Of a stretch of DNA of 64,000 nt, positions 1 through 58,572 are shown piece by piece. The position numbers and the translations under genes are program-made. Source of the stretch: Dictyostelium discoideum (taxonomy: Eukaryota); NCBI GenBank assembly GCA_000004695.1, contig CM000151.3, positions 3,616,001-3,680,000 on the forward strand. Reading direction: 5' to 3'. How positions within the stretch are numbered: position 1 is the first letter of the stretch; each line of letters starts with the position of its first letter. Under the pieces are notes generated by a model that saw only the letters and a list, made by a program, of their open reading frames with translations, had not been told where the DNA came from and did no database searches.

Positions 1-717
1 TTGTCTATTTGAATATTTAAATTTCGATTATTAAAGGTCAATAAACCAAAATTGTTTGGCGAATATGTGGGTTTTAAAAATGATGCTTTTAAAGAATAGT
101 TTGAATTTTGACCACTTTCAAACCCAAATGGCCAACTAAAGATATATTGAAAACCTAAATTCCATCTAAAATAAAATGAAAATGTTTCATACTGGGTATT
201 TGAATTGAATCCAAATGAAAACATTGTTGAGTTTAATGTTAAAGGTACTGATATTGGTTCAACAATGACATTTGGAAATGTAAAATTAAAATTATCTATT
301 CATTTTTTTAAAAAAAAAAATTAAAATAATGTCAATAGAAATTAATCTTTGATATATGTATATATTAAAAAGTAATTAAATTTAATTTTAACAAACTTAC
401 TAAAAACATTTAAATTTGGATCACTATAAATTGTTGTTAATGAGTTATTAATTTTTGCGAAAATAGAATATTGTGTATGAACTTGGCCAATGAATGTTGT
501 ACCTTTTCCTGGTATTTCATATGATGGAGTTGGAATATTATTTGTAATATCTTCAATAAATAATGGATCATATTCAATGGTTTCATTTAATGTAATAGAG
601 TAAACTGGTGAACAATTAATTCCAAATTCTTTAACATCAGTTTGGTTTGGGTAGATCTTAAATGTAATATCCTTTTCTTCTACATTCATTTCTTAAAATA
701 ATAATAATTTTAATATC

Positions 718-748
<31 letters not shown>

Positions 749-1105
749 ATTATTATACTTACTTGAAAAATATAAAAAAGGAATTGTAATATTTACAGTA
801 TATTGTTGATCTGAACTATCCAAGAATCTTATTGATATATTAAACTCTGATATTAAATTATTTTTATCAAATCCTACACCAACAAAGAATAAATTTGAAT
901 ATCCCTCTAAGCTCATTGCAACATTTGAAGGACTTGAAACATTTAGCAAATTTAGTGGATATTTTAAACCTGCAAAGTGTATTGTTGCTGTATAAGGAAA
1001 AAGTGTAAATTTATAATTGTTACTTGTTAAAACATTGACCTTCATCAATTCTCGAGGGATATCTATAAAATTGATATTAAAGTTAATTATTTTTTTTTTT
1101 TTTTT

Positions 1106-1150
<45 letters not shown>

Positions 1151-1571
1151 GTTTTATATACAAACATTCACAAGAATAAGTTATTGAGATATTTTTATAA
1201 ATAATTTGATCATTTTGCAATGTTGCATTTATTAATAATGTATAAGTATTTGGTGTTTTATTTTTAACTATAACTGTGGCAATTCCTCCATATTCTTTCT
1301 TATTGATTAGAGAGACTGTTGCATCTGTGTCATTGGTGAAAACCATCAAATTTGTTCCACTATTCGAGTAATCAACTATTGCAATCGAAAAAACATATGA
1401 ACAAATTTTTTGATTTGTTGAATCTGGGTATCTATTATAAGCACCTTCTTCTTGATTTGTAATATCATACAATTGAAACTGTCCTTCAACCCCAATTATT
1501 AAATTATTTATTGTTGAAAAGCTATTTATTATCGCCAATGTTAGGATTATCAATAAAATTTTCTTTATCAT
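1..1571 (-). CDS. Paralog 0 (5' part only; exon 5 lies left of the window) of the tandemly repeated large type-I membrane glycoprotein gene (Tgr/LagC-like, hypothesis). Exons about 1166..1571, 763..1062, 401..691 and 1..295.
   Basis: Signal peptide MIKKILLIILTLAIINSF starts at the ATG at 1571. Each exon ends in a GTAAGT-type donor one base past a codon (phase 1) and resumes after an (A/T)AG acceptor with the frame conserved. Bases 1-300 are near-identical to 5459-5760, which is exon 4 of paralog 1. The protein is collinear with paralogs 1 and 2. Confidence 0.5.
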
Positions 1572-1737
1572 TTTTTTTTTTTGTTTATTTAAACTTGCAA
1601 TAAGTTTTTTTTTTTTTATTAAAACAACAAAAAAAAAAAAAAAAAACTTGCCCTTTAGCAAACATTTTTTTTTATTTTTGCTTTTTTTTTTTTTTTTACG
1701 ATTTGCTGAGCTAATAAAAGATATTTAAAAAAAGATA

Positions 1738-1770
<33 letters not shown>

Positions 1771-2472
1771 AAATAAAAAACAAAAAAAAAATTTTGAAAT
1801 TCTAAGGGGCAAACAGAAAAAAAAAAAAAAAAAAAGACACAAAATTTCTTTTCGCTTTTATTACCAAACAAATTGGTGTCGTTTTGTTAAAAAAAAAAAA
1901 AAAAAAACAAAATATTGATGATTGTTTTTTATATATATTTTATAAGGCGGTTGTAAAAATTTTTGCATTAAAGTGTTCCTCTTTTTTTTTATTTTTTTTT
2001 TTTACTTTTATTTTTTTTATTTTCTGTGTAACTCCCCTTATTATTTTATCTTTTATTATTATTGTTATTTTTAAAAAAACAACATTCATCTAAATGATTG
2101 GTTCATTTTACTTGTTTTTTATTTTTTTTTTGGTTTTTTTTTTTCTTTTTACCAAATAATTGGTTTTTTGGTGTTGTTGATGAAATCAATTGCTTTTTCT
2201 TTCTACTAATCTTGATCCATTTTTTTGTTCTATCTCAAGCTAATTGATTATATAATTAATGGTGATTTTGTCTTTTTTTTTTTTTTTTAAAGATTAATTT
2301 AAAAAATAATAAAAAAAAAAAAATTAAAATTTTTTTTATATATACTTTTTTTTTCGAATTAAAAGTCCTGTTTTTATTTGTTTTTATCTTTTATTTTTTA
2401 TTTTTTATTTTTATTTTTTTTCCAAGATTTATAATTTAAATATTAGAATTAAATTAACTGATTAAGTAATTA

Positions 2473-5400
2473 TCAGTTAATTGTTTGTAATTTCTTTTGT
2501 ACTTTTCTTTGGAATTTTTTTGATTTTCTGTTTTTCACAACCAAGTAAACAACTGATACAATAACTACAGTGGCAAAAGCAATAGAACCAATAATAATAC
2601 CAGCGAGTTGAGCACTTGTTAGTTTTGATTTATTTGATGTACAAATTGAATTATTATCATTATTTGATACTGGTTTACTATCTACTAATACTGAAAAGTC
2701 TGGATCAATAATTATTGATTGTTTATAGTTTGGTATTGTAATACCAATGAATGATTGTGATACTGATGATGTTTGAATTGAGTTCATTTTTGAATCTAAT
2801 AATTGATTTTCAATTGAAGACACTTTTGAATCGATGATTGCTCTTTTAATGAATCTACCATAAAGTGAATGATCATCAATTTGAATTTTAAAGAAGTTTG
2901 AATTATCACCATCGCTTGTATCTCCAAATACTTTTAATGAACAAGTATCTTTGGAAGTTGATGATTCGAATAATGCTGACATTACAAGTTGAAGACTATT
3001 TAATTGTTTTAAAAATTTATATTCTGTAATTTCAATTGTATATTTAATACTTGATGGATTCATTGTTATATTATTATTTGCGAATTGAATAATTGTCGTT
3101 TGATTGAACCATTCTAAAGTTACAGTAATATTGGTTGTTAATGTATTTGTTGATTTTGTATCACCACTTTGAATACTTGTAAAGTATTGACTTTTAATAT
3201 TATTAATTGGTGTATAAATCCATTTATCAAATGTATATAAATTAACTTGATTTGAATTAAAATCTAATTCTCTTAATGATACAATTGAAATCAATGATTT
3301 GAATAAATAATTTGTACTATTTGATGTTTGATTATTGTTATCGATAATTGGTAATTCAGTTGATGGTTGTGATGTATTTGTTGATGGTTGTGGTATAATT
3401 ATAACTTGTGAATTACAATCATTACCAATCCAAGGTGGATAACAAATACATCCACTTGATGAACAAAAACCTTGTTTTGATCCACCACATACTGGTTCAC
3501 CTAAACATGTTTGTGGTTTATTCGTTGGCATTGGTGATGATGTAGGTATTGGTGTTTGTGTTGGTGTTGGATCTATAAAATTATAAACTATTGGATTGAC
3601 AGTGAATTCATTTGATGTGAGTGGTAGGTCTGAAACTTTGATAATGAATGGTTTATCGGTTGGTTTAATATTTTTAATAAAAATTGCACTCCAATAAACT
3701 GTAGTTGGTACTATTTGATTAAAGCTTGAGTCTCCTTCATATTTTACATATACTTGTTGCGTTGAATTGAAACATCTACCTGTTATCCATAACTCGCTAT
3801 CAAATGAATTAAATTTACTGCATTTTGTGATTTGTATTACTTTATTAAAAGTTATATTATTAATTGTATATATAAAAGATAAATTATTTAGTGATTCGCT
3901 TGAATATCCGCTATAATAACCGCCATTATTAATGAATCCATAAACACTGAAAATAATATCTGAATTGTATCCAAATCCTATTGGTAAATCGATAGTACAT
4001 GTATAGGTTGCAGCTGTTTCGTTTATTGAAATAATAGATGATACACATTCAAGTGTTTGTACTTCTATTGTTTCAATATAAACAACTGGATATTGTTTAT
4101 CTTTTAAACCACTTTCAATATCTACTGCTTCAAAGTTGAATGATAAGTATTGAGTACCATCACTATTTTGTTTTAATATTGGTATGAATGAAGTTAAAAT
4201 TGGTGGTGAACTATCGATACCATCATTTTCACCACTACATGTTTTATATACTTTATTTATTGTTGGATCTGATAAATAATTTATAAATACATTTTTAATA
4301 CCATCCATTTCACCAACTACATAAAATTCACCTGAAAAGCCTTGAGTATCATATAATTTAACTTGTGTGATAATATAATTTTGAGATGCACATTTACTTG
4401 GTAAAGTTATATTAATTTGATAATCACCATTAAATTTATCACCTCTTGTTAAATTTTGAGTTGTTAAATGGAATTTATAAGTTGAACTATCCATTTCACC
4501 TCTCACTATAATATCACCATAATCAAAACCATTAATTGGATCATCTATTGTAAATTTCCAACCAAATTCATTTGGTGAATTAATTTTTTCAATATTACTA
4601 AATATTGGTCCATACGCATCGAAATGTTTAGAAACAATAAATAGTTGTGATGATAAAGGAAACATATCATTTGTTATTGAAGATTGATAACCACACATTA
4701 AAAAGAAACTGAGTGGACCAGGTCTAGTGTTTGCAAGAACTGTAAATTTAATTTGATATTTTGAAATTGTTGAATTCCAAGTTGCAAACTTTAAACTATC
4801 GAAAACTATATTAGATTCTGTGGTATTACTATTTAAAATAAAAAGTGAGAATGAAGCTGAAGGATCACTATGGGCTTGAGTACCATTATAATTGAAATAA
4901 ATTATATTATCAACTGATTTATTTGCCACATCAATATAATTTTTTAAAAATGTAATATTTTCTATTAAAACAGGTAATATTGTTGGAGCTTTATAATCTA
5001 TAACTGAAAATGGATTAATTGAAAAATAACTATTTACATAATAAACTTGACTCTTTTTAAAAGTTGAATCTCCAATAGATAAAACTGAAAATCCACGCCC
5101 TTTAAAATCATAAACAATTTCATATATATTATTTTCAGCATCTACCAATGATTCTTGTCTATATATTGCATTTGCATCATCATTAATTTGAATGAAAAGA
5201 TTATAACCAATCTCTTTATATGTTGGTTTTATTTTAATTATTAATAAATGAAATTGTTCAAAAAGGTATATAACTTTACATGATTCTAATTCTAATGGTA
5301 GTAATGATGAATTTATCGCTATTTTTAAAAATATTTTTTAATGTTAGTACTTGTTTGTGTGTGGGGTGTGTGTGTGTGTTATTCAGTAGTAGTTTAGAAT

Positions 5401-6976
5401 ATTAATGATTATATATGTATATTAGAATATTAATGATTATATGTATATATACTTACTATTGTCTATTTGAATAATAAAATTTTCATTATTAAAGGTCAAT
5501 AAACCAAAATTGTTTGGCGAATACGTGGGTTTTAAAAATGATACTTTTAAAGAATAGTTTGAATTTTGACCACTTTCAAACCCAAATGGCCAACTAAAGA
5601 TATATTGAAAACCTAAATTCCATCTAAAATAAAATGGAAAAATTGCATACTGAAAACTTGAAGTGAACCCAAATGAAAACATTGTTGAGTTTAATATTAA
5701 AGGTAATGATACTGGTTCAACAATGACATTTGGAAATGTAAAATTAAAGTTTTCTATTCATTTTTTTTTAAATAATGTCAATAGAAATTAATCTTTGATA
5801 TATGTATATATTAAAAAGTAATTGAATTTAATTTTAAAAAACTTACTTGAAACATTTAAATTTGGGTTACTATAAATTGTTGTTAATGAGTTATTAATTT
5901 GTGCGAAAATAGAATATTGTGTATAAACATAACCAATGAATGTTGTACCTTTTCCTGGTATTTCATATGATGGAGTAGGCATACGACGTGAAACATCTTC
6001 AATAAATAATGGATCATATTCAATGGTTTCATTTAATGTAATAGAGTAAACTGGTGAACAATTAACTCCAAGTACTGTAACATCGGTTTGGTTTGGATAG
6101 ATCTTGAATGTAATATCCTTTTCTTCTACATTCATTTCTTATAATAATAATAATTTTAATATCTTATTTTTTTTTTTTTAAATTTAATTATTATACTTAC
6201 TTGAAAAATAAAAAAAAGGAATTGTAATATTCACAGTATATTGTTGATCTGAACTATCCAAGAAAAGTATTGATATATTAGACTCTGGTACAAAATTATA
6301 TTTATTAAAATCTACACTAACATATAATAAATTTGAATAAAAATTATTTATGTTTATCCAAGAAGGACTTGAAACATTTAGATAAGATATTTGATATTTT
6401 AAACCTGTAAAGTGTATTAATGTTGTATAAGGATTAATTGTAAATTTATAATTGTTACTTGTTAAAACATTGACCTTCATCAATTCTCGAGGGATATCTA
6501 TATAAAATTGGTATTGAAATTAATTAATTATTTATTTTTGTTTTTTTAATTTTAAATTTTATATACAAACATTCACAAGAATAAGTTATTGAGATATTCT
6601 TATAAATATTTTGACCATTTTGCAATGTTGCATTTATTAATAATGTATAAGTATTTGGTGTTTTATTTTTAACTATAACTGTGGCAATTCCTCCATATTC
6701 TTTCCTAATGATTTGATAGACCATTGCATCTGTATCATTGGTGAAAACATTCAAAGTTGCCCCACTATTCGAGTAATCAACTATTGCAATCGAAAAAACA
6801 TATGAACAAATTTTTTGATTTGTTGAATCTGGGTATCTATTATAAGCACCTTCTTCTTGATTTGTAATATCATACAATTGAAACTGTCCTTCAACCCCAA
6901 TTATTAAATTATTTATTGTTGAAAAGCTATTTATTATCACCAATGTTAGGATTATTAATAAAATTTTCTTTATCAT
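2473..6976 (-). CDS. Paralog 1, complete: 5-exon gene for a type-I membrane glycoprotein of about 1380 aa with signal peptide, N-glycan-rich ectodomain, PT-rich linker, EGF-like Cys module, TM and short basic tail (Tgr/LagC-like, hypothesis). Exons about 6571..6976, 6201..6497, 5847..6137, 5457..5753 and 2473..5318.
   Basis: The ORF-track entries 6524..6976, 6184..6483, 5788..6135, 5437..5682 and 2473..5148 join in frame through GTAAGT/GTTTGT donors and TAG/AAG acceptors with phase 1 throughout. The four introns are 70-140 nt and AT-rich; intron 4 carries a (GT)n tract. The C-terminus is ...CLGEPVCGGSKQGFCSSSGCICYPPWIGNDC (EGF-like), then a TM (LAGIIIGSIAFATVVIVSVVYLVV) and the tail KNRKSKKFQRKVQKKLQTIN. 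Confidence 0.6.
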
Positions 6977-7205
6977 TTTTTTTTTTTAAAAAAAAAAATA
7001 AAAAAAAAAAAAAAAAAAACGTTCCCCATTTTTTTTTTTACGATTTGATAAAGATATTTATAAAAAGATATTTATAAAAAGATATTTTAAAAAAAAAATT
7101 AAAAAAAATATTTTTTGAATTTCAAGACTACCTCACAACAAAATTTCATTGTTTTTATTTTTTATTTCTTTTTTTTGATCCCAACAAACACATTATAAAT
7201 GGTAC

Positions 7206-7252
<47 letters not shown>
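7206..7252. repeat. (AAT)n microsatellite, about 16 units
   Basis: A perfect AAT/ATA trinucleotide run, read directly. Confidence 0.9.
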
Positions 7253-7253
<1 letters not shown>

Positions 7254-7774
7254 TGTTTAATTTATTTAATTTCTAATACTAACATAAAATTTGTTTGGTA
7301 GAGTTGGATCTGGAATAAAATCATTTATGTTTTATTTGTTGAAGATTTTGTTTATTTAGTCCAAAATACCTTGTTTAGTTGTTATAAATCCATTAGCTTG
7401 AAGACTTGGCATAATATGACTTGTGTTTGGATTTTGTTGTATTAGTTGTGAATTCATCAGATTGAAGACTTGGCATAATATGATTTGTGTTTGGATTTTG
7501 TTGTTGTATTAGTTGTTGTTGTGCTTGTATTAGTTTTTGTTGTGTTCCTAATGTTGCTAGTAGTTGTTTGCATTGACATTGTTCTTTTTTAGGTTGATTA
7601 CAACCTCTACAAATGTATACCATTTTTTGTTTAGTAATAATTTAGCCAAATAAAAAAATAAAAAAATATAATAAAAAAAATCAAAAAAAAAAATTTTGGT
7701 TATTGAATTTTCTATTGTGCCTTTTTTTAATAATTAATTTTGAAAAATTTTAGTAAAATATATTTTTTAAAAAA

Positions 7775-7808
<34 letters not shown>

Positions 7809-8282
7809 AAACAAAGAAAAAAAATAAAAAAATTTAAAAAAAAAAATAATATAATATAAAAAAATATAAAGCAGTTATTCATTTTTAATTAAATTACCAA
7901 ATAAAGAGTTTTAATTTAAAGGATTAAACAAAAATCAATCAATAGGTTTATTTAAATGTAAAGTAGTTATATTTATATTATCAAATAAAGAATTTTAATT
8001 TTAAAGTAATAAACAATAAACAATAAACAATAAAAAATAATAAATATGTTTATTTATTTTAATTTTAAAATGCACAATAAATTTCTTTATTTAATTTAAA
8101 TTATGGAACAATGAATTTTAATTTATAAAAAAAAAAAAAAAAAAAAAAAATCACCAATACACAGAGAATAATAAAATAAAATTATTTGTTGATATTATAA
8201 TAAAAATGATAAAAAATATTAAATTAATTTTAAATATTAATATCTTTTTTTTCATTATTATTTTCCTTTGTTATATAAAGGA

Positions 8283-8636
8283 ATTTCCTTTATAAGTGAT
8301 TCGCTTGAATATCCGCTATAATAACCGCCATAGTCAATATTGGTCCATATTCATTGAAATGTTTAGAAACAATTAATAGTTGTGATGATAAAGGAAACAT
8401 ATCATTTGTTATTGAAGATTGATAAGTACTAATTAAAAAGAAACTGAGTGGATCAGGTCTAGTATTTGTAAGAACTGTAAATTTAATTTGATTTTTTGAA
8501 ACTATTGAAATATATATTAGATCATATCTGTATTACTACTATTTAAAATAAAAAGTGAGAATGTAGCTGAAGATCACTGTGGCCTGAGTATCATTATAAT
8601 TGAAATAAATTATATTATCAACTCCTATTAAGATTT
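8283..8636 (-). pseudogene. Degenerate, internally deleted fragment of the large glycoprotein gene (matches paralog 1 around 3893-3930 joined to about 4600-4925)
   Basis: About 85-90% nucleotide identity to two non-adjacent segments of exon 5. It contains indels and frame breaks and has no flanking exons. Confidence 0.55.
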
Positions 8637-8882
8637 AAAAATAAAAAATTTAATATTTAAAAAAAAAAAAAAATATTTTCAAATAATTTTTTTTTTTTTT
8701 TTTTTTAAATCCATAATTTTAAAAATATTTTGACACATACACCATATCGATGAATCATTACATCAAAATACCTTAGTAAGTTTTTTTTATTTTTTTATTT
8801 TTTCAATTTGTTTAAATAATTAATTTTTATTAATTATATATATATACTCAAAATGATAAATTTTATTTAATTTTTAAAAATA

Positions 8883-9275
8883 TTTCATCACCAAATAGAC
8901 AAGAAAGATATGAAGCAGTTAAATGTGTTAGAGAAATTTTATCTGATGGTAAGTTTTTTATTTTTATTTTTTTTTTTTTTTAATTGACTTTTTTTTTTTT
9001 AAATTGACTTTTTTTTTTTAAATGACTTTTTTTTTTTTTTTTTTATTATTTATTATAAAAAAAAGATAATAATCCACAAATTGATAGAGTTATTAGTTCA
9101 GGGTTAGTACTAATTTTACATAGATATTTAGTTGATGAAACAGATACTTCAATTCAATACGAAGCATCATGGGCATTAACAAATGTTGCATCAGGATCTT
9201 CAAAACATACAAATTATATTGTAGGGAATGAAATTCATAATTCTGTATTAAGTAAGGCAATTGCAGAGTTGAGGC
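8883..9275 (+). pseudogene. Importin-alpha (karyopherin alpha) pseudogene fragment covering ARM repeats 1-2, in inverted orientation relative to the rest of the gene
   Basis: The + strand translates to ...ISSPNRQERYEAVKCVREILSDG, then GTAAGT, then ...KDNNPQIDRVISSGLVLILHRYLVDETDTSIQYEASWALTNVASGSSKHTNYIVGNEIHNSVLSKAIAEL. This is the canonical importin-alpha ARM2 motif (FEAAWALTNIASG...). The last 28 bp (9248-9275) recur inverted at 10020-10047. Confidence 0.55.
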
Positions 9276-10050
9276 ACCACAGATAGCCTTAGCAATAGCG
9301 CAGGTGGCTTCAAGTTTTGTTCTTAAATTGATCGATGAGTTTTTACCGGTTTCAATAGCTCTTTTAAGCAAACATTCGTCTATGACTCTTTGGACTTGAT
9401 CTGTTGGACCATTGGTAATATATAATAAAAAATAATAACCTCACGTCACCAATGCTTCTGATGGTGATGATAAGATTTTAGGAAACACTTTCAATACATT
9501 ACATTGTAACAAATACTCTATAACGTCATAGAAACCTGAAAGCATATTACCAATTGTATTGAATCCGTATTTAATACAATCTTTTTGATCTGATTCGAAA
9601 ATGATTTCAATGATAACCTCAACCAATCCCATAGATATAATATTGTCAAAGATCTCATGCTCTTCATTGGTTGATTCGGTCAAGCATGATAATGCCCACA
9701 ATGCTTCTGATATGACATCAGCTTCTTTATGCCAAGTTAAGAGCAACTCTTTATTGATGGTAATAGTGGCTTAACGAGTCTAAATTCAGTACGTGGTACA
9801 CCACGACATAGATTTTTAATGACCCAAGCTACATTTGAAACTAGTGATTTCTTTGAATGAGTTTTCAATATTTCTATCAAATGTAATACTATACCTTAAT
9901 TGAGTACACTATCTCTATTTTGGAATGAATCACCAGTGATATTACCTAATGTCCAAATGTTTTGTTCTAAAAGATCAACATCATTACTAGTTGACATTAA
10001 ATCAATTATACTCTCAACTCTGCAATTGCCTTACTTAATACAGAACGATT
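9250..10050 (-). pseudogene. Importin-alpha pseudogene body (ARM3 to about ARM8) on the minus strand, with an in-frame TAA and frame shifts
   Basis: The minus strand reads ...NRSVLSKAIAEL / DLMSTSNDVDLLEQNIWTLGNITGDSFQNRDSVLN*GIVLHLIEILKTHSKKSLVSNVAWVIKNLCRGVPRTEFRLVKPLLPSIKELLLTWHKEADVISEALWALSCLTE...GFNTIGNMLSG...TNGPTDQVQRVIDECLL...KLEATCAIAKAI. This is collinear with importin-alpha (WALGNIAGD, TWTLSNLCRG, CWALSYL, RAIGNIVTG, KEATWTMSNITAG). It is interrupted by a TAA where a Tyr is expected and by frameshifts near 9441 and 9900. Confidence 0.5.
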
Positions 10051-10925
10051 GTCTTGAATGTTTGAAACAGAATTATTCAGCATCTAAAGCTCGAAAAAAT
10101 TCTTTTTATTACTATTTGGAGGGCATTGCCAAAATATTAAATATTGTCAAAAAACATACCAAAGAAACAAACTGTTTAAAACTTTTCAACACTTTTATCG
10201 ATGGTCAATTCTTTGATAATTTACTCGATGATTCCAATTCTTGTGAACGAGAATTTGTTGAAGGTTACTCAACAATCAGCGATGAATTTGATGAGTTGAC
10301 TCAAGTGGTTCAACAAATTGAACCTAAAAATTCAAAGGGTGAAGATGTAAATGAAGTTAATTGTGAAAAATCTGCTGAAAAAGCTTCTGATTATGAAGAT
10401 GATATTGCTAAATTATATGAAATGAAACTTAATGAATAAAAACAAAATAAAATAAAATAAAATAAAATAAATAAATTTCAATTGGAAGATTTTTTATTTC
10501 CAGTCTGTTAAACATGTTGAACTGTTAAAACTATTAAACCTGATAAACCTACCAAACGATCCTGTGCCAAAGATTGGAGAGAATATAAATCTATCTATAC
10601 ACTATGACATTAGGAATGGTTTAATATTTATTAACACTTCAACAACAATAAAAATAAAAAAATTTAAACATCATCATTTTTAAATATTGGAAAAATTTTA
10701 ATAATTTCAAATAAATAATAAATGTGTGGGTAAACCTAATTAATTTGTTTTTAATTTTTTTTTTGTTGAACCACTACAGTAGAAATTTTTTTTTTTACAT
10801 ATACATAAGAAAAGACAAATAAATAATAAGTAAATGCATAAAGAAATTTTTAAAAATTAATAAAAAAAATAATAATTTTTATTTTCCAAGATTTTTAATT
10901 AGAATATTTGAATTAAATTAACTGA

Positions 10926-13900
10926 TCAGTTCATTTTTTGTAATTTGTTTTGTACTTTTCTTTGGAATAAATCTGATTTTCTGTTTTTCACGACCAAGTA
11001 AACAACTGATACAATAACTACAGTGGCAAAAGCAACGGAACCAATAATAATACCAGCGAGTTGAGCACTTGTTAGTTTTGATTTATTTGATGTACAAATT
11101 GAATTATTATCATTATTTGATACTGGTTTACTATCTACTAATACTGAAAAGTCTGGATCAATAATTATTGATTGTTTATAATTTGGTATTGTAATACCAA
11201 TGAATGATTGTGATACTGATGATGTTTGAATTGAGTTCATTTTTGAATCTAATAATTGATTTTCAATTGAAGATACTTTTGAATCGATGATTGCTCTTTT
11301 AATGAATCTACCATAAAGTGAATGGTCATCAATTTGAATTTTAAAGAAGTTTGAATTATCACCATCACTTGTATCTCCAAATTCTTTTAATGAACAAGTA
11401 TCTTTGGAATTTGATGATTCGAATAATGCTGACATTACAAGTTGAAGACTATTTAATTGATTTAAAAATTTATATTCTGTAATTTCAATTGTATATTTAA
11501 TACTTGATGGATTCATTGTTATATTATTATTTGCAAATTGAATGATTGTCGTTTGATTGAACCATTCTAAAGTTACAGTAATATTAGTTGTTAATGTATT
11601 TGTTGATTTTGTATCACCACTTTGAATACTTGTAAAGTATTGACTTTTAATATTATTAATTGGTGTATAAATCCATTTATCAAATGTATATAAATTAACT
11701 TGATTTGAATTAAAATCTAATTCTCTTAATGATACAATTGAAATCAATGATTTGAATAAATAATTTGTACTATTTGATGTTTGATTATTGTTTTCTATAA
11801 TTGGTAATTCAGTTGATGGTTGTGATGTATTTGTTGATGGTTGTGGTATAATTATAACTTGTGAATTACAATCATTACCAATCCAAGGTGGATAACAAAT
11901 ACATCCACTTGATGAACAAAAACCTTGTTTTGATCCACCACATACTGGTTCACCTAAACATGTTTGTGGTTTATTCGTTGGTATTGGTGATGATGTAGGT
12001 ATTGGTGTTTGTGTTGGTGTCTCTGTTGGTGTTTCTGTTGGTGTTTCTGTTGGTGTTTCTGTTGGTGTTAAGGGAATCGTAAAATTATAAACTATAGGAA
12101 TAACAGTGAATTCATTTGATGTGAGTGGATAGTCCGAAACTTTGATAATGAATGGTTTATCAGTTGGTTTAATATTTTTAATAAACATTGCACTCCAATA
12201 AACTTTATTTGGTACTATTATTTGATTAAATCCAGGTTCTCCAAAATATTTTACATATACTTGTTGTTTTGTTGAATTGAAACCTCTACCTGTTATCCAT
12301 AACTCGCTATCACCAGATACAAATTTGCTACAGGTATTAATTTGTATTACTTTGTTTATGGATATATCGCTCATTGAATATATAAAAGATAAACTATTTA
12401 GTGATTCGCTTGAATATCCGCTATAATAACCGCCATTATTAATGAATCCATAAACACTGAAAATAATATCTGAATTGTATCCGAATCCATTTGGTAAATT
12501 GATAGTGCATTTATAGGTTGAAGTTGTTTCATTTATTGAAATAATAGATGATACACATTCAAGTGTTCTTAAATCTGTTGTTTGGATATAAACAATTGGA
12601 TATTGTTTATCTTTTAAACCACTTTCAATATCTACTGCTTCAAAGTTGAATGATAAGTATTGAGTACCATCACTATTTTGTTTTAATATTGGTATGAATG
12701 AAGTTAAAATTGGTGGTGAACTATCGATACCATCATTTTCACCACTACATGTTTTATATACTTTATTTATTGTTGGATCTGATAAATAATTTATAAATAC
12801 ATTTCTAATACCATTAAATCCACTGGATACTGAAAATTCACCTAAATAACCTTGAGTATCATATAATTTAACTTGTGTGATAATATAATTTTGAGATGCA
12901 CATTTACTTGGTAAAGTTATATTAATTTGATAATCACCATTAAATTTATCACCTCTTGTTAAATTTTGAGTTGTTAAATGGAATTTATAAGTTGAACTAT
13001 CCATTTCACCTCTAACTATAATATCAGCATAATCAAAACCATTAATTGGATCATCTATTGTAAATTTCCAACCAAATTCATTTGTTGAATTAACTTTTTC
13101 AATATTACTAAATATTGGTCCATATTCATCGAAATGTTTAGATTCAATAATTAATTGAGAAGATAAAGGTAAGAAATCACTTATTAATGAACTTGAATAA
13201 CCACAAAGTAAAGCAAAACCAAGTGGACCAGGTCTAGTATTTGCAGGAACTGTAAATTTAATTTGATATTTTGAAATTGTTGAATTCCAAATTGAAGTTG
13301 TAATATTATCATAATCTACGACTCCAGTTACTTTAAACTCATGAGATAAAATTAAAAATGAGAAATTAATTGTATCATCTTTAGGTTCTTGAGTACCATT
13401 ATAATTGAAATAAATTATATTATCAACTGATTTATTTGTTACATCAATGTTATTTATTAAATAAGTTACATTACCAATTAAAACTGAAATCATATCAGAA
13501 TATTTAAAATCAAGTTTTAAAAGTGGATCAATTGAATAATATTGAAATGGATTATAAAATTGAGATTGTCTTGAATAAGAATCACCAATATTTAAACTAT
13601 TTAATATACCTTCATGAAAATTTAAAACAGTTTCATATATATTGTTTTCGATATCAGGCATTGAGTCATATCTTAATACTTGATTAACATTATCATTAAT
13701 TTTAATAAAAGTACTGTACCCTTTACTTTGATAAATTGGTTTTATTTTAATCTTAAATAAATAAACTTGATTATATAAATGAGTAGAATTAAATGATTCT
13801 AATTCTAATATTGGTAATGTATTTATATCCACAACTATTATTTATAATAAAATTATTTTAATTAATATAATAATTTTATTAAATAATAATAAAAAATAAA

Positions 13901-15044
13901 AAAAAACAATTACCTTGTTGATTACTAATTTGCGTTAAAGAATGATCTTGATTGAAATAAAGTGAGTTGTAGGGATTTACAGAGATTTCAGATTGTAGAA
14001 ATGATGACTTGAATGAATAATTTGAATTATGACCACTTTCGAAACCAAAAGGCCATTTATAACTATTTGAAAAACTTTCAAACCATCTAATTGAATAATT
14101 GAATAAATCAAATTTTTTAGTTGAATTAAATTTAATTGAAAATATTGATGAAAGTGAAGGTAATGGTGGTGAATAATCAATTTGAAAAGATGGAAATTTT
14201 CTATCAATATTATCTATATATTTAAAAAACAATAATAATAATATTATTAAAATTATTAACAAAAATGATTTTTTAAAATAATAAAAATAAACAATAATAA
14301 AAAAAAATAATAATAATAATAATAAACTTACATGAGACCTTTAAAAATTGATAATAAATTGTAGTTAAGGTGCCATTAATTTGAGCACCAATTGAATAAT
14401 CGGAAGAAACTTGACCAAGGAATGTTGTACCTTTTCCTGGCATTTCATAAGATGCCCATGGATTTAAACCTATATTTTCATTAATAAACAATGGGTCGCT
14501 TAATCCAATTGTTTCATTTAATGTAATAGAATAAATTGGTGGACAAATAAATCCAAATTCTATAACATTTGTTTGATTAGGATAAATTTTAAATGTAATA
14601 TCCTTTTCTTTTACATTTGAATCTGAATTTTTAAAATTATAATTTAATATATTAATTTTTAAAATAATAATAATAATAAAAACAATAATAATAATAACAA
14701 TAATTACTTACTTGAATAAATTAAACTTGGAATTGTATAATTTAATGAATAAGTATTATTTGAACTATCCATGAACCATAGTGATATATTAAAATCTGGT
14801 TTAATAAATCCATTAAATTCGTCACCAATATGATAGACAAATGGCCTTATATTATCAACTTTTACATTATACGGTTTGTCAACTTGTAATTGACCCAATG
14901 GGTATTTTAATCCTGTAATGTACATTATTGTTGAAAATGGGTAAATTGGATGCTTATATTTACCAGTATGATATAAATTTATTTTCATTGATTCTCGTGG
15001 AATATCTATTTAATTTATTTAATTATTTAATTAATTATTTATTT

Positions 15045-15103
<59 letters not shown>

Positions 15104-15521
15104 CTTAAAAAAATAATCAATACAAACATTGACAAGAATAATTAATTATAATACTACTATAAATTGATGTATCATTATCATATTCTGCCGTAATTAATAA
15201 TGAATAATCATTTGGTGATTTAGTATTTACATAAATTGGAAGAACTTGACTTGAAATATTTTTAAATGCTGGTGTTGAAATTGTTGCGTCTGAATCGTTG
15301 GTTTTTATTTTTAATTGAACTCCAGTATCTGAAGTATCGGTTACAAATATTAAGAAAAAAAAATTACAATATTTGTCATTTGTATTTGTTGGATATTTAT
15401 TATATGAGTATTCTTCACTAGAAACATCATAAATTTGAATTGCTGGATTTCCTTCAACCCTAAAAATTTGTAATATTACTATTATTATTAGAATTAATAA
15501 TAGTATTCGTTTTCTGATCAT
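10926..15521 (-). CDS. Paralog 2, complete: 5-exon type-I membrane glycoprotein gene of about 1400 aa. It is the most divergent N-terminus of the three, and its PT-rich stalk is expanded to PTETPTETPTETPTETPTQTP. Exons about 15128..15521, 14712..15005, 14332..14623, 13916..14213 and 10926..13834.
   Basis: Signal peptide MIRKRILLLILIIIVILQIF. Exon junctions: ...caacaag|GTAATTG...aataatag|TTGTGGAT (in frame), ...tctcat|GTAAGT, ...ttcaa|GTAAGT. The start of the 'ORF' 10926..13832 is a GTG artefact of the ORF caller. The 3' 1.1 kb is about 97% identical to paralog 1 (2473-3600). Confidence 0.6.
12013..12066 (-). repeat. 12-bp coding minisatellite (GGTGTTTCTGTT)n, encoding (PTET)n in paralog 2; the paralog-1 equivalent has a single PTPTQTP
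   Basis: Four to five tandem 12-mers, read directly. There is a length difference between paralogs at the homologous position. Confidence 0.8.
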
Positions 15522-15864
15522 TTTTTTTTTTATATTTAATATGAATAAATAAAAAAAGAAGAAAAAAAAAATTCACAACTGCAATTGCAATCAAAAAAAA
15601 AAAAAAAAAAATTTTTCTTCTCAGTTTTTTTTTAAAAAAAAAAACATATCTAAAAATATCTTAATAATTTTTCGATACCGAACAGCCTGGGCCAATCAGA
15701 AAAAAAAAAATTAAAAAAAAAATAAATTTTTATCAACAAAAATCCAAAAACCAAAAAAAACTGATCTGTGTGTTTGAATGTTGGATTGTATTGGATTGGT
15801 GTTACAATCAAAAAAAATGACAAAAAATGATATTAACAAAGAATAAATGAATTATGGTAAATAG

Positions 15865-15867
<3 letters not shown>

Positions 15868-15952
<85 letters not shown>
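15868..15952. repeat. (AAT)n microsatellite of about 28 units, followed at 16021-16067 by an A47 homopolymer
   Basis: Read directly. Confidence 0.9.
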
Positions 15953-15954
<2 letters not shown>

Positions 15955-16018
15955 TGAGTCTTTAATTTGTGAATTTTTATTAGATTTTTGTTATCCCATT
16001 TGAGAATTGAACATCACA

Positions 16019-16069
<51 letters not shown>

Positions 16070-16342
16070 ATTTTATAAATAAACATATATATTAATTTCT
16101 AAAAATAAATAAAAAAAAAGTCAGTGACTAAAAAAAGAGTTGTGTCTTTGGTCATCAAAAAAAAAAAAAAAATTAAAAAATTAAAAAAAAAAAAAATTAA
16201 AAAATAAAAATAAAAATTTTCATGAAAATTTTAAATTTGTGATTTTGAAAAAAAAAAAAAAAAATTAAAAAATTAAAAAATCGCTGTACATATTCAAATT
16301 AAAAAATAAAAATAAACATAATTAATAATATAACAATATAGA

Positions 16343-16510
16343 ATGTTATTAGATAACGACGCATTCCTTTCAGCATTAAACAAATTATATCAAACTACAT
16401 CAAAAAAAGGAACTGTTTGGGTCACAATGAAGAAATGTAAGATATTTTATTATATTTTATTTTATTTTATTTTATTATCAACTTTACATATAATCTAATA
16501 TATACCATAC

Positions 16511-16565
<55 letters not shown>

Positions 16566-16892
16566 ACACACACACACACACACATACATATATATGAATT
16601 ATTCATTATTATAGATGTAGATTCAGATTCAAACTTTTCACGTAAAAAAGCAGAAAGAATTAAAGAATCAGAAGAGGAAGAAAATAAATGTTTAGTTAGA
16701 GCAACAAATGGTAAAAAAAAGATATCAACAATTGTTCTCGCTAAAGATAAATCAATGTTTGAAAAGAATTATAAAAATGTTTTACTTATTAATTTAGATA
16801 ATCTTAAAGTTGAGAAAAAGAAACCTACTCCCACCACAACTCCTAGTTCTTCAACTACTGCAAAAACTGCTGCAAAGAAAACTAAAGTCTAA
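16343..16892 (+). CDS. srp14: Signal recognition particle 14 kDa protein (SRP14); 2 exons, 16343..16436 and 16615..16892
   Basis: MLLDNDAFLSALNKLYQTTSKKGTVWVTMKK(C/Y)... and ...KCLVRATNGKKKISTIVLAKDKSMFEKNYKNVLLINLDNLKVEKKKPT..., against SRP14 motifs FLTELTRLFQK..GSVYITLKK and KCLLRATDGKKKISTVV. Donor aaat|GTAAGA, acceptor ttatag|AT, phase 1. The intron carries a (CA)n tract. Confidence 0.8.
16512..16590. repeat. (CA)n/(GT)n dinucleotide microsatellite of about 35 units inside the srp14 intron
   Basis: Read directly. Confidence 0.9.
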
Positions 16893-17047
16893 ACAAAAAA
16901 AAAAAATAAAAATAAAAAAAGCAAAAAAAAAAAAAAGGAAAATAATAAAACAAAATATATATGCACATAAAATAAATAAATAAAAAAAAAAAAAAAAAAA
17001 AAGGATTGTGGAAAACTTTTTTTTTACCTTTTTAAAATAATATTATT

Positions 17048-17078
<31 letters not shown>

Positions 17079-17102
17079 ATTGTTATTTTTATTTAATTTA
17101 AT

Positions 17103-18222
17103 TTATACAATTCTTTCAAGTTCTTTGGCATAGTGAAGAGTTTGGTGAATCAATTGTAAAGATGGAATTTCAACGGTTTGATTATCATTATTTCCAAATT
17201 GAATTACATCACCTTGAACTTTCCAATTTCTTTCCTTAATGTATTGTTGGAATTGATTGTTATCATTGAATAATAATACTTTTTCTGCATCTTTTAATGA
17301 TAATGTTTTAAATGATTTTTCACTACAATTTGCAATATCCTCCCTGATATATCATTTAATATAATAAATATTAAAATATATTAATAAATTAAAAATAAAT
17401 AATGGATATAATAATAATAAAAATAAAATAAACATACTTTATTGAATCTGCTAAAATATCAAGGAAAACTTGATAATATTCTGATGGTACACCAGATCTT
17501 GATTGAATAATTTTATTATAACTACCCTCTGTAATTGATTTTTCAACCAATAATGGGAATCTTGAAATAAATAAATAAATAAATAAATAGAAAATAAATA
17601 AATAAAATTAATATAATGAAAATAATAATAATAAAATTTTTTGATAATATATATAAAATAAAAAAAAAATACAAACTTAATGAATGAGTTATCTAAATTA
17701 TTAAATTCGATTAATTCAATTTCGCTATGGAATTCTGATGTTTTATGTTTTGCTAATAATCTCATTAAATTCAAACCAATAATTTGATATTCTAATGTTG
17801 ATGGTGCAATAATTGATTTATAATCATAATAGTATGTCTTTAATTGATTAAATGTTCTTTCAAATGAATCAATATCTTTAATTTTAATTGAATATAATGA
17901 AATTAATTCTAAAATCTCTCCTAAAATAGTTTTTTAAAAAAAAAAAAAAAAGATAAAAATATTAATAAATGTATTTTTTTTTTATATATTTTTGTCGTTG
18001 TTGTTGTTGTTGTTGTTGTTGTGTTGTTGTTAACATACTTGCTAAAACTAAATCTTTTTTAACTTTATCAGAAACATTTGAAAGAGAAGTTGGTTTTTCT
18101 AAATGAATTGTTGCTGCTAATTTTAATTGAACTAAAACTGGTGTAATTTGTGCTTTATCTGAATTACCAGCAACAAGCTTTTTAAAGTTATTTAAATTTT
18201 GTTCAATTGAACTAAAATCCAT
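17103..18222 (-). CDS. psmD8: 26S proteasome regulatory (lid) subunit Rpn12 / PSMD8; 4 exons, about 18040..18222, 17672..17924, 17450..17572 and 17103..17346
   Basis: The exons translate to ...[82 protein letters not shown] / [41 protein letters not shown] / [52 protein letters not shown]...[18 protein letters not shown]. This is collinear with human PSMD8 ([84 protein letters not shown]). Confidence 0.8.
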
Positions 18223-18445
18223 TATTAATTATATATATAAAATTATATGTGAACAGAGTGAGATAAAAAAAAGTGTGAAGATGATAAAAAAAAAAAAAAA
18301 AAATTAAAAAAAAAAAAAAAAATTAAAAAATTAAAAAAAAAAAAAAAATTGAAATTAATTGTTGATGATCACCTTGTAAATTAAAAAAAAAAAAAAATAA
18401 AAAAAATAAAAATAAAAAAAATAAAAAATAAAAAAATATAATATT

Positions 18446-18480
<35 letters not shown>

Positions 18481-18593
18481 TGAAAATAATAATGAACATC
18501 GCGATTGAATAAAAAATAAAAATAAATATAAATAATTAAAAAAAAAAAAGAGAGATTTATTGTTTTATATATATATTATAATTTTATTTTAAT

Positions 18594-18872
18594 TTATTTA
18601 TTCTTTTTTGATTTAATCATTACAAGTCCCAAAAATGTACCAATTGCGGTAATACCGACTACTAATAAAACTAAAGGAATAATAATACCATATTCTCTTG
18701 GTAAAAAGTATTGTTGAATCCAATGATCTGAAACAATAAATGGCTATAAATTAAATAATGGGAAATTAGCTTTTTTTTTTTTTTTTTTTTTTTTTCCTAA
18801 ATTTATATAACTTACAGTAATAATAACCCATGTTGTATAATATCCAAATACAAAAATCCTAAATAAAACCAT
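18594..18872 (-). CDS. dpm2: Dolichol-phosphate mannosyltransferase subunit 2 (DPM2), 68 aa; 2 exons, 18816..18872 and 18594..18743
   Basis: MVLFRIFVFGYYTTWVIIT | PFIVSDHWIQQYFLPREYGIIIPLVLLVVGITAIGTFLGLVMIKSKKNK*, against human DPM2 [61 protein letters not shown] donor, ATAG acceptor, phase 0. Confidence 0.75.
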
Positions 18873-18924
18873 AACAAAACCTATAAATTTATCTGAAGCA
18901 CCCTAAAATTGATATTATTATTAA

Positions 18925-18964
<40 letters not shown>

Positions 18965-19147
18965 CTTTTCCAAAATCTAAAACTAAAAAATTTACCATTT
19001 TATCTATATTTTATATTCTATGTGCTAAGCTATATTTTGTTTTTATTTTATTAAATGTACAAATAAGATTATTTAGTCTTAAAATCAACAGGGAAAATGT
19101 ATATGTGAATGAAGACAAATTCGCAAAATTAAAAAAATTTGAAATGC

Positions 19148-19180
<33 letters not shown>

Positions 19181-19652
19181 AAAATTAAAAAAAAAAAAAA
19201 AAAAAAAAAATAAAATAAAAATTTAAAAAAAATATTACAGATGCACAGAAAAAAGGGTTTAATTTTTTCTAAAAATTAAAATAATTGGGTGGGTTATTTT
19301 TGTTAAACAAAAAATTTTTTTTTTTTTTTTTTTTTGAAATGGGATATTGAGGGAAATTTGGGGGATAAAATTAAAGTTTATTATTCTTTTTTTACTAAAA
19401 GTGATAAAATTAATTAATAATAATAAATATAAAATTTTTTTTAACATTTTTTTAATAAAATATATCTTTAATTCTAAAAATAAATTAAAAATTATGGCGG
19501 GGAAAAAAAAAAAAAAAAAACTAAACGTTATAGGCATAAAAAAAAAAAATCATGAAAAAACGCATATTTTTTCGTTTTTTATCATAAAAATTTTTTTTAA
19601 AAAGATTTTTAATTTTTTTTTTTTTTTTCAGTTGAAATTTTCGTATTACAAA

Positions 19653-20524
19653 ATGGGTATGTTCCCTTTATATAAAGATAGAGATAATGATAGTGGATAT
19701 CACCACTATGTCACTTTTTCAATGATCTTTATCAATCTTTCAATAATCATCAATAATTAGTTATAATCTTCATGAAACTAATATAATAAATCATTATTTT
19801 TAAAATAATCACAATCAATAATGAATAGGTGCCTACAAATACTTACAAGAACTCTACAAAAAGAAGCAATCTGATGCTGTCCGTTTCCTCCTCAGAGTCA
19901 GATGTTGGGAATACAGGTAGGTTATTTAATGATAAAGTAGCAAAAGAATAAATAATAATAATGATATTAATTGGATTTAATTATTTTTAAAATATTAGAA
20001 ATCTCCCAGTCTGTCATCGTGCTTCACACCCAACTCGTGTTGACAAAGCCAGACGTTTAGGTTACAAAGCTACTCAAGGTTTTGTTGTATACAGAATCCG
20101 TGTCAGACGTGGTGGTCGTAAGAGACAAGTTCCAGGTGGTCGTACTGGTGGTAAACCAAAGACTCATGGTGTTAACGAATTAAAACCAAGCAGAAACTTA
20201 AGATCCGTTGCTGAAGAACGTGTTGGTCGTCGTTGTCCAAATCTCCGTGTTCTCAACTCATACTGGGTTAACCAAGATTCAACCTACAAATATTATGAAG
20301 TCATCTTAGTTGATAACTCTCACAATGCCATCCGTAACGACCCACGTTACAACTGGATCTGTAAACCAGTCCACAAACATAGAGAATTAAGAGGTTTAAC
20401 CTCCGCTGGTATCAAAGCCCGTGGTCTCCGTAGAAAAGGTACCCACAGAGCCAGCAAAACTAGACCATCAAGACAAGCCAACTACAAACGTAGAAACACC
20501 GTCGTTTTCCACAGATACAGATAA
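19653..20524 (+). CDS. rpl15: 60S ribosomal protein L15e; 3 exons, 19653..19656 (ATGG only), 19829..19916 and 19999..20524
   Basis: M|[30 protein letters not shown]|[47 protein letters not shown]...[20 protein letters not shown]...[16 protein letters not shown]...VVFHRYR*, near-identical to eukaryotic RPL15. The 4-nt first exon has atgg|GTATGT. Codon usage is GC-rich. Confidence 0.85.
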
Positions 20525-44426: not shown

Positions 44427-48424
<3,998 letters not shown>

Positions 48425-57811: not shown

Positions 57812-58572
57812 TATTTATATATATATATGTTATTTGTTTTTTTTTTTTAATTTTTTTAATTAAAAATTTTACAACAATAATTGGTGAAATGAAATGAAAT
57901 TTTTTAATTTTTTTTTTTTTTTAAATTAAATTTGAAAATCAATTTGGTGTGTATTTCGAAAAATAAAAAAAAATAAAAAAAATAAAAAATAAAAAAAAAT
58001 AAAATTTTCCACTCTCACTGCAAACAACTAAATTAATCCCGAACCCAAACAAAAGAATGGTTCGGGTGTTTTTATATTTCTAGATTATCCACCAGATACC
58101 TTACACAAAAAAAAAAAAAAAATAATGAAAAATTATAATTTTTTTTTTTTTTTTTTTTTTTTTAATGTCTATTTTTAAAATACAAAAATAAAAAAAACCA
58201 TATAATTTTGTGTATTTATGATCAAAAAATGATTGAAGAGGATTTTTTATTTTAAAAATATCTTTCGTAAAGTATTTAATTGTATTATTCTTTTTATTAA
58301 AAAAAAAAAAAAAAATAAAAAAATAAAAAAATAAAAAAATGCAAATAAAGGAAATTATCCAAACAAAAAAAAATAAAAAAAAATAAATAAAAAATGAAAA
58401 CAATTAAAATTTTATTTAATTAAAAAAATCATAGGTTTTAATTTATTTAATTTTTTTTATTTTTTATTTATTTTTTTTTTATTTTTTTTTTTTTTTTCAA
58501 AACACAATTTTTAAATATCTATCAAATGAAACACTACTGAAAAAAGAAAAAAAAAAAATAAAAAGTTTTTTT

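Follow-up and report, generated by a model that had tools for sequence, protein, structure and literature searches.

Organization of the locus

Along the minus strand at the start of a 64,000-nucleotide stretch of Dictyostelium discoideum chromosomal DNA (the window; ~22% GC and 99.8% identical to a second D. discoideum assembly), a bacterial-style ORF track lists a series of short ORFs together with two large ones. Are the short ORFs genes in their own right, or parts of larger, split genes? We found three tandem paralogues on this strand, all in the same orientation, and each was laid out as four small exons (291-406 nt) followed by one large exon (2.8-2.9 kb). Copy 2 extends over 6976..2473 and copy 3 over 15521..10926. 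Copy 1 (1571..1) is cut by the window start, which leaves no more than its 5' third inside. The short "genes" are in all likelihood the first four exons of three adjoining five-exon membrane-protein genes, and they appear as small ORFs because a eukaryotic split gene was read by a bacterial ORF finder. The features of each copy are as follows.

Copy 1
1166..1571, minus: exon 1, ATG at 1571, 406 nt, end in phase 1; translation is the N-terminus of XP_644341.1
1063..1165, minus: intron 1, 103 nt, GTTTGT...TAG, GC 6%, 37-nt homopolymer run
763..1062, minus: exon 2, 300 nt, phase 1-1
692..762, minus: intron 2, 71 nt, GTAAGT...AAG
401..691, minus: exon 3, 291 nt, phase 1-1
296..400, minus: intron 3, 105 nt, GTAAGT...TAG
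1..295, minus: exon 4, 295 of 297 nt, cut by the window start; remainder of the gene outside the window

Copy 2
6571..6976, minus: exon 1, ATG at 6976, 406 nt; hydrophobic N-terminus read as a signal peptide
6498..6570, minus: intron 1, 73 nt, GTTTGT...TAG, GC 10%
6201..6497, minus: exon 2, 297 nt, phase 1-1
6138..6200, minus: intron 2, 63 nt, GTAAGT...AAG, GC 6%
5847..6137, minus: exon 3, 291 nt, phase 1-1
5754..5846, minus: intron 3, 93 nt, GTAAGT...TAG
5457..5753, minus: exon 4, 297 nt, carries the WPFGFESGQNSNYS motif
5319..5456, minus: intron 4, 138 nt, GTAAGT...TAG, TACTAAC branch-point-like motif
2473..5318, minus: exon 5, 2846 nt; DUF7035, DUF7034, EGF-like DUF7949, ComC_SSD, transmembrane segment; stop at 2473-2475
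6571/6497, minus: modelled exon 1/2 junction, TCTTGTGAAT/ATATCCCTCG

Copy 3
15128..15521, minus: exon 1, ATG at 15521, 394 nt
15006..15127, minus: intron 1, 122 nt, GTTTGT...TAG, GC 4%, 56-nt homopolymer run
14712..15005, minus: exon 2, 294 nt, phase 1-1
14623..14711, minus: intron 2, 89 nt, GTAAGT...CAG
14332..14622, minus: exon 3, 291 nt, phase 1-1
14214..14331, minus: intron 3, 118 nt, GTAAGT...TAG
13914..14213, minus: exon 4, 300 nt, WPFGFESGHNSNYS motif
13835..13913, minus: intron 4, 79 nt, GTAATT...TAG; its junction is quoted in the earlier note
10926..13834, minus: exon 5, 2909 nt; stop at 10926-10928; (TPTE)4 repeat at 12021-12068
13914/13834, minus: modelled exon 4/5 junction, ATTAGTAATCAACAAG/TTGTGGATAT
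15128/15005, 14712/14622 and 14332/14213, minus: other modelled junctions

Removal of the introns left one ORF of 4137 nt with a single terminal stop in copy 2 (1378 aa) and one of 4188 nt, likewise with a single terminal stop, in copy 3 (1395 aa). For copy 1, the four-exon model gave 430 residues within the window. The whole gene is present in the second assembly (15406-19924 there), where it has the five-exon layout and its translation is XP_644341.1.

The gene-model correction offered in the earlier note, that the small ORFs are early exons of the large genes, is borne out by these single open frames, with four small exons per gene instead of the three it had assumed. The ORFs that it listed at 342..689 (115 aa), 746..1048 (100 aa), 5788..6135, 6184..6483, and 6524..6976 are all present. 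The ORF at 1143..1661 is also present and encodes 172 aa, not 150, and the span 14273..15521 comprises three ORFs. What ends exactly at the donors is the coding segments; the ORFs themselves continue past them, the first in-frame stop coming 8-59 nt inside the intron, so that unspliced read-through would meet a stop at that distance past every donor. The large ORFs had been said to start at TTG or GTG within a frame open upstream, and they do so (TTG at 5148 and GTG at 13832), the frame being open up to the acceptors. An exon 4/5 intron of 75-125 nt agrees with copy 3 (79 nt), not with copy 2 (138 nt), and the junction caacaag/GTAATTG...aataatag/TTGTGGAT, ascribed to copy 2, is real and belongs to copy 3 (13914/13913 and 13835/13834). 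Eleven ORFs of at least 60 aa correspond to exons 1-4, close to the 12 false small genes predicted, and the warning that a pipeline working from ORFs would call these exons as small genes was correct.

Splice sites and intron conservation

All 11 introns in the window have GT...AG ends and lie in phase 1. They are 63-138 nt long, with a GC content of 4-22% compared with 22-29% in the exons. These lengths are typical of the species, in which intron length averages 132.6 nt, the median being 104 nt (PMC4683709). The phase-1 GTAAGT or GTTTGT donors described previously were found in 10 of the 11 introns (GTAAGT in seven; GTTTGT in three, intron 1 of every copy), the remaining donor being GTAATT at copy 3 intron 4. 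Similarly, TAG or AAG acceptors accounted for 10 of 11 (eight and two, respectively) and CAG for one, and all of them restored the frame. On the minus strand of 1..15600, GTAAGT occurred seven times, each time at a proposed donor and never elsewhere, whereas shuffled sequence contained 3.8 occurrences, randomly scattered.

The exon-intron boundaries are also conserved. The D. citrinum orthologue has five exons and phase-1 introns, positioned at the same alignment columns as in copies 2 and 3. In a D. dimigraforme homologue with 38% identity there are likewise four introns in phase 1; one shares its alignment column, and the other three are displaced by 2-6 columns. Indels between the paralogues were multiples of three in 17 of 17 exonic cases, compared with 4 of 12 in introns. 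Every difference between the window and the second D. discoideum assembly was intronic or intergenic, including a 7-nt length difference in the homopolymer run of copy 1 intron 1 and the length of copy 3 intron 1 (122 nt in the window and 84 nt in the second assembly). Furthermore, a metagenomic contig of 4229 nt encodes a homologue of 1375 aa in one uninterrupted frame, and colinearity with it extends through the exon 4/5 junction. In a scan of metagenome contigs, the spliced exon 1/2 junction sequence had no match, and a protein-pattern scan of metagenome contigs for transcript-like contigs detected no relative. Judged from their sequence features, these are very probably U2-type GT-AG spliceosomal introns that would be spliced in vivo.

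Agreement with annotated genes

The 1378-aa product of copy 2 was identical, residue for residue, to XP_644342.2 (EAL70417.2, EAL71040.2), annotated in D. discoideum AX4 as "EGF-like domain-containing protein". This is the same gene, and our model re-derives it with no differences. The copy 1 model corresponds to the first 430 residues of XP_644341.1 (EAL70416.1), an AX4 protein with the same description. For copy 3, the gene called in the second D. discoideum assembly has the same start, stop, and 1395-aa product, and we obtained the same protein there. The copy 3 protein also aligned gaplessly at all four junctions with proteins of 79-95% identity from other strains and species. Its exact product was not found in the protein collection, and none of the matches returned was an AX4 protein at least 90% identical to it. 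Such agreement is less than fully independent evidence, because the proteins compared are predicted from genes too. A literature search by the accession numbers of these genes found no paper, and one for comC together with lagC found none in the library searched. Of the three genes, at least two already have known multi-exon models in the curated annotation, and there is nothing to correct there.

Predicted proteins

Copy 2 matched four Pfam families, ComC_SSD (PF22933), DUF7035, DUF7034, and EGF-like DUF7949, with scores of 126.4, 95.3, 61.1, and 55.3 bits against curated gathering cut-offs of 24-27. A protein homologue related to copy 3 carries the same four-family set. In contrast to this C-terminal set, the N-terminal 660 residues, which include all of exons 1-4, had no family match in the Pfam copy used, and a search of the N-terminal 678 residues against the local copy at E ≤ 1 gave nothing meaningful. 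DUF8390 (PF28405), a family outside that local copy, appears in the precomputed listing for homologues. The N-terminus MIKKILLIILTLVIINSFS was judged by eye to be hydrophobic, and a hydrophobic-run search found a single run of 24 residues near the C-terminus (1335-1358), followed by KNRKSKK. The hydrophobic leader lies in exon 1 only and the membrane anchor in exon 5 only, and there are 34-35 N-glycosylation sequons. The products of these genes are probably ComC-like membrane glycoproteins with a predicted type I topology. ComC itself appears in a published listing as a secreted/transmembrane EGF-domain protein needed for development (PMC4931340), and by analogy a role in cell-surface adhesion or signaling may be inferred.

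An AlphaFold2 model of the N-terminal 670 residues, built from a 10-sequence alignment, had a mean pLDDT of 47.9, which is too low for a fold search. In this low-confidence model, an all-beta pattern was seen with weak loops near residues 133-138, 231-243, 333-340, and 427-439, in coincidence with the intron positions. This is at most suggestive of each small exon being one domain. Profile-profile comparison of the exon-coded modules gave probabilities of ≤2% throughout, leaving exon duplication without support. No sequence relative was found among solved structures at E ≤ 0.1.

We propose that the spliceosome would remove four short, very AT-rich, phase-1 GT-AG introns from each transcript and that the spliced mRNA would be translated into one protein of about 1380-1395 aa. 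In this protein, an N-terminal hydrophobic leader (a predicted signal peptide) would be followed by an ectodomain of ~1300 aa, all-beta and rich in glycosylation sites, and then by a single transmembrane helix with a short, basic tail on the cytoplasmic side. The predicted order within the ectodomain is an N-terminal region specific to this family, for which exons 1-4 and the first part of exon 5 code, then DUF7035, DUF7034, a Pro/Thr linker, an EGF-like module, and the ComC supersandwich domain. The proposal builds on the exon-intron structure observed, on the restored reading frame, on products identical to annotated proteins, and on conserved intron positions; taken whole, as three tandem five-exon paralogues with phase-1 introns encoding ComC-like membrane proteins, we hold it with high confidence.

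Alternative interpretations

Read as the ORF track presents them, the small ORFs would be independent short protein-coding genes. Each has an open frame of 72-172 aa, and 6 of the 11 begin with ATG. However, the other five have only a TTG start, allowed by the bacterial code and not a normal eukaryotic start. The ORFs share a strand, and the spacers between them are 63-138 nt long, have 4-22% GC, and are bounded by GT..AG; when joined, the ORFs give exactly the RefSeq protein XP_644342.2. Independent genes would also leave the leader confined to exon 1 and the anchor to exon 5. The TTG starts, the splice-bounded spacers, and the identity of the joined product effectively refute separate genes, and we give that reading virtually no chance. 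Scarcely more probable is a division of each unit into two genes, one with four exons and a secreted product of ~430 aa, the other consisting of the large ORF and starting from an internal ATG. Retention of intron 4 would bring a stop 20-35 nt past the donor, and the large ORF has length enough for a gene of its own, but no stop interrupts its frame between the acceptor and the listed starts, which are TTG and GTG. The position and phase of intron 4 are kept at the same column in D. citrinum and within 6 columns in D. dimigraforme, the uninterrupted metagenomic homologue crosses the exon 4/5 junction colinearly, and the product of exon 5 alone would be without a signal peptide despite its sequons, EGF-like module, and C-terminal anchor.

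Two further readings accept the five-exon structure. Copy 3, spliceable in silico, could be an unexpressed or decaying duplicate, as the lack of its exact product in the protein collection and of an AX4 match of at least 90% identity among those returned, together with the 56-nt homopolymer run in intron 1, might suggest. Yet its 4188-nt frame is intact, all four splice-site pairs are canonical, and comparison with the other copies gives dN/dS values under 1 for most segments (0.19-0.93; 1.00 in exon 2 versus copy 2). Other strains and species have intact counterparts, with identities of 95%, 89%, and 79%, and a 1395-aa gene is called at the same place in the second assembly. Decay of copy 3 is therefore very unlikely. 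It is slightly less improbable, but still quite unlikely, that the five-exon form is accompanied by other isoforms. The middle exons (2, 3, and 4; 291-300 nt) are symmetric, phase 1-1, in all copies, and skipping any of them would keep the frame; all annotated homologues, however, retain every exon, with no sign of skipping. Alternative splicing is rare in D. discoideum.

Paralogue divergence and significance

Along the gene, dS between the paralogues fell from 0.45-1.4 to 0.05, and dN/dS in the N-terminal part was 0.4-1.9. The closest D. discoideum and D. cf. discoideum proteins, not established as orthologues, diverged by 5-11% in protein sequence. The paralogues form a mosaic, with a diverged 5' half and a homogenized 3' half. 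We think it doubtful, though conceivable, that the array represents fast-diversifying surface recognition or adhesion receptors, in which the N-terminal ectodomain (here exons 1-4 plus codons 1-230 of exon 5) would be diverging quickly while the 3' half is kept near-identical by gene conversion, each of the symmetric phase-1 exons encoding one swappable or skippable beta-rich module.

The locus serves as a quality check: a bacterial-style ORF track here yields ~11 spurious small genes and cuts two large ones short, and the earlier note was able to arrive at the true exon-intron structure from sequence alone. The correction is right but ordinary, because public annotation already models two of the genes in this way, and the existing D. 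discoideum annotation gains nothing from these gene models. Only the mosaic pattern of the paralogues is possibly worth a separate look.

Comparison with known systems

These genes have the C-terminal domain set in common with dictyostelid ComC-type proteins. A more distant member of that group carries DUF7743 in its N-terminal region, whereas that region had no match to any family in the Pfam copy used here. The introns resemble ordinary D. discoideum spliceosomal introns in their GT-AG ends, GTAAGT-like donor, length range, and very low GC content, and they differ from them only in that all four are in phase 1 and the GTTTGT donor of intron 1 is conserved.

Exon-intron structure of the ComC-like genes

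Three tandem ComC-like paralogs (copies 1, 2, and 3) were located by reading the minus strand and mapping each exon boundary.

Exons of the three ComC-like copies
Copy 1, minus strand: 1571-1166, 1062-763, 691-401, 295-1 (cut by the window start)
Copy 2, minus strand: 6976-6571, 6497-6201, 6137-5847, 5753-5457, 5318-2473 (complete)
Copy 3, minus strand: 15521-15128, 15005-14712, 14622-14332, 14213-13914, 13834-10926 (complete)

All 11 introns started with GT, ended with AG, and were in phase 1. The donors were GTAAGT (seven), GTTTGT (three), and GTAATT (one), and the acceptors TAG (eight), AAG (two), and CAG (one). Intron lengths of 63-138 nt agreed with the values for D. discoideum (mean 132.6 nt, median 104 nt; PMC4683709), and the GC content was 4-22% in introns versus 22-29% in exons. 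In the copy 2 protein, the introns fell at residues 136, 235, 332, and 431. On the minus strand of 1..15600, GTAAGT occurred seven times, each time exactly at a proposed donor and never elsewhere, a coincidence well above chance. AATAAA motifs were found downstream of copy 2 (2415-2378) and copy 3 (10883).

An earlier note, based on the sequence only, had proposed that small ORFs in the ORF track are exons 1-3 of the large genes. The ORF list behind it was made with the bacterial code and was blind to introns. All the listed ORFs were present on the minus strand, and they are indeed early exons of large genes, but with four small exons per gene rather than three. The phase-1 donors were also real, although the ORFs did not end exactly at them but ran 8-59 nt beyond the donor to the first stop. 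The range of 75-125 nt given for the intron between exons 4 and 5 was too narrow, this intron being 138 nt in copy 2, and the caacaag/GTAATTG junction ascribed to copy 2 exists but belongs to copy 3. As the note had stated, the large ORFs start at TTG or GTG within frames open upstream, here up to the acceptors, because the ORF finder requires a start codon. These results confirm the observation and support its interpretation.

Spliced products and protein records

When the five exons of copy 2 were joined, a 4137-nt frame with a single terminal stop was obtained, encoding 1378 aa. Exact-sequence look-up identified this product as the D. discoideum AX4 protein XP_644342.2, which carries two GenBank accessions for one identical sequence (EAL70417.2 and EAL71040.2); the double accession would fit the duplication on chromosome 2 known from strain AX4. 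For copy 1, the product of its four exons was identical to residues 1-430 of XP_644341.1. The joined exons of copy 3 comprised 4188 nt and encoded 1395 aa. The same copy 3 protein was obtained from the corresponding locus of another D. discoideum assembly (GCA_054883475.1; L001), where a gene is called with equal start, stop, and product length. No entry of the protein collection matched the copy 3 product exactly; the closest entries, from other D. discoideum strains, were 95% identical and aligned without gaps at all four junctions. The difference between 1395 aa and the 1384 aa of these proteins is due to the length of a (TPTE)n coding repeat in the Pro/Thr linker, (TPTE)4 at 12021-12068 in copy 3 and shorter in the others. 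The gene models are thus already in public annotation, exact for two of the three copies, and the result was already known; the finding is therefore an ordinary one, a correct diagnosis of an ORF-track artifact.

Support independent of annotation and alternative gene models

The D. citrinum ortholog likewise has five exons, with phase-1 introns of 78-99 nt and again a GTTTGT donor in intron 1. In a D. dimigraforme homolog (38% identity), the introns are also in phase 1; one occupies an identical alignment column, and three lie 2-6 columns away. Indels between the paralogs were multiples of 3 in 17 of 17 cases in exons and in 4 of 12 in introns, and all differences between the window and L001 were intronic or intergenic, mostly in homopolymer runs. 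We also found a 4229-nt metagenomic contig (L003; JGI 3300028160, Ga0256900_1003619; 31% GC) consisting of one uninterrupted 1375-aa ComC-family ORF with short flanks, which has the appearance of either a transcript or a relative without introns, from an uncultured amoebozoan.

That the small ORFs are separate small genes is excluded: five of the 11 lack an ATG, the spacers between them resemble introns, and the joined product is identical to a RefSeq protein. A four-exon gene followed by a distinct large gene is very unlikely, since the position and phase of intron 4 recur (at the same column in D. citrinum and within 6 columns in D. dimigraforme), the L003 protein stays colinear and unbroken where exons 4 and 5 meet, and exon 5 by itself encodes no signal peptide. 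Copy 3 could be silent, because no AX4 protein was found for it, but both its reading frame and its splice sites have stayed intact, and most segments show dN/dS below 1. Because the middle exons are symmetric, skipping them would preserve the frame, but there is no sign that skipping occurs.

Divergence among the paralogs

The copies are mosaic paralogs. Identity between copies 2 and 3 was 50-77% in the 5' 2.2 kb and 92-99% in the 3' 2 kb; copy 1, complete in L001 (15406-19924), was also compared. For the same pair, dS was 0.45-1.4 in exons 1-4 and dropped to 0.047 over the final 350 codons, and this fall along the gene is suggestive of gene conversion, or of a partial duplication involving the 3' half, rather than of selection alone. 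Between copies 1 and 2, dN/dS was 1.58 in exon 2 (6201-6497) and 1.95 in codons 431-660 (~4630-5318 in copy 2), with few sites in each; the nearest proteins from other D. discoideum and D. cf. discoideum strains, of uncertain orthology, differed by 5-11%. The N-terminal ectodomain may therefore be evolving fast or diversifying, although few sites were available and orthology is uncertain.

Surrounding DNA

The GC content per 2 kb was 16-35%, mostly ~22%, and long homopolymer runs and AAT repeats were present. The first 20 kb was 99.8% identical to GCA_054883475.1. Intron 1 contains homopolymer runs of 56 nt in copy 3 (15048-15103) and 37 nt in copy 1 (1108-1144); the former explains why copy 3 intron 1 is 38 nt shorter in L001, where the latter run is also 7 nt shorter. 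Long intergenic AAT/ATT repeats lie upstream of copy 2 (7206-7253) and copy 3 (15867-15953). Strand asymmetry was marked at 46001-48000 (GC skew -0.61, AT skew +0.45, GC 29%), and 56001-58000 was a GC-rich patch (35%); both may represent biased repeats or conserved genes.

In the L001 annotation, a short gene with introns (158 aa, faint Arm match) lies between copies 3 and 2 (~9427-9983, minus strand), where the ORF list holds fragments only (9441..9746 and 9093..9371). Immediately upstream of copy 3 (~16330-16880, plus strand), this annotation has an SRP14 homolog (123 aa, PF02290); a Dicty_CAD gene and one more ComC-like copy, the fourth, are located past the start of the window.

Predicted protein layout and comparison with ComC

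The pre-mRNA of each gene would be spliced at four canonical GT-AG introns. As read from the sequence, the product begins with a hydrophobic leader, followed by a long ectodomain that contains 34-35 N-glycosylation sequons.

Predicted features of the products
DUF7035: residues 663-792
DUF7034: residues 803-918
Pro/Thr linker: between DUF7034 and the EGF-like DUF7949
DUF7949 (EGF-like): residues 1035-1069
ComC supersandwich domain: residues 1089-1308
Single hydrophobic segment: residues 1335-1358, then a short basic tail

The predicted arrangement is that of a ComC-like type I membrane glycoprotein. The low-confidence predicted structure was all-beta and had weak loops coinciding with the four intron positions. 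No sequence similarity was found when the exon-coded modules were compared with one another, no sequence relative was found among solved structures, and a literature search by these accessions found no paper naming them. comC, which encodes an EGF-domain protein that is secreted or transmembrane, is listed among the genes required for D. discoideum development (PMC4931340), and from the resemblance to ComC only, we infer a role in cell-surface adhesion or signaling. The L003 protein differs from the window copies in carrying DUF7743 where these have their own N-terminal region.
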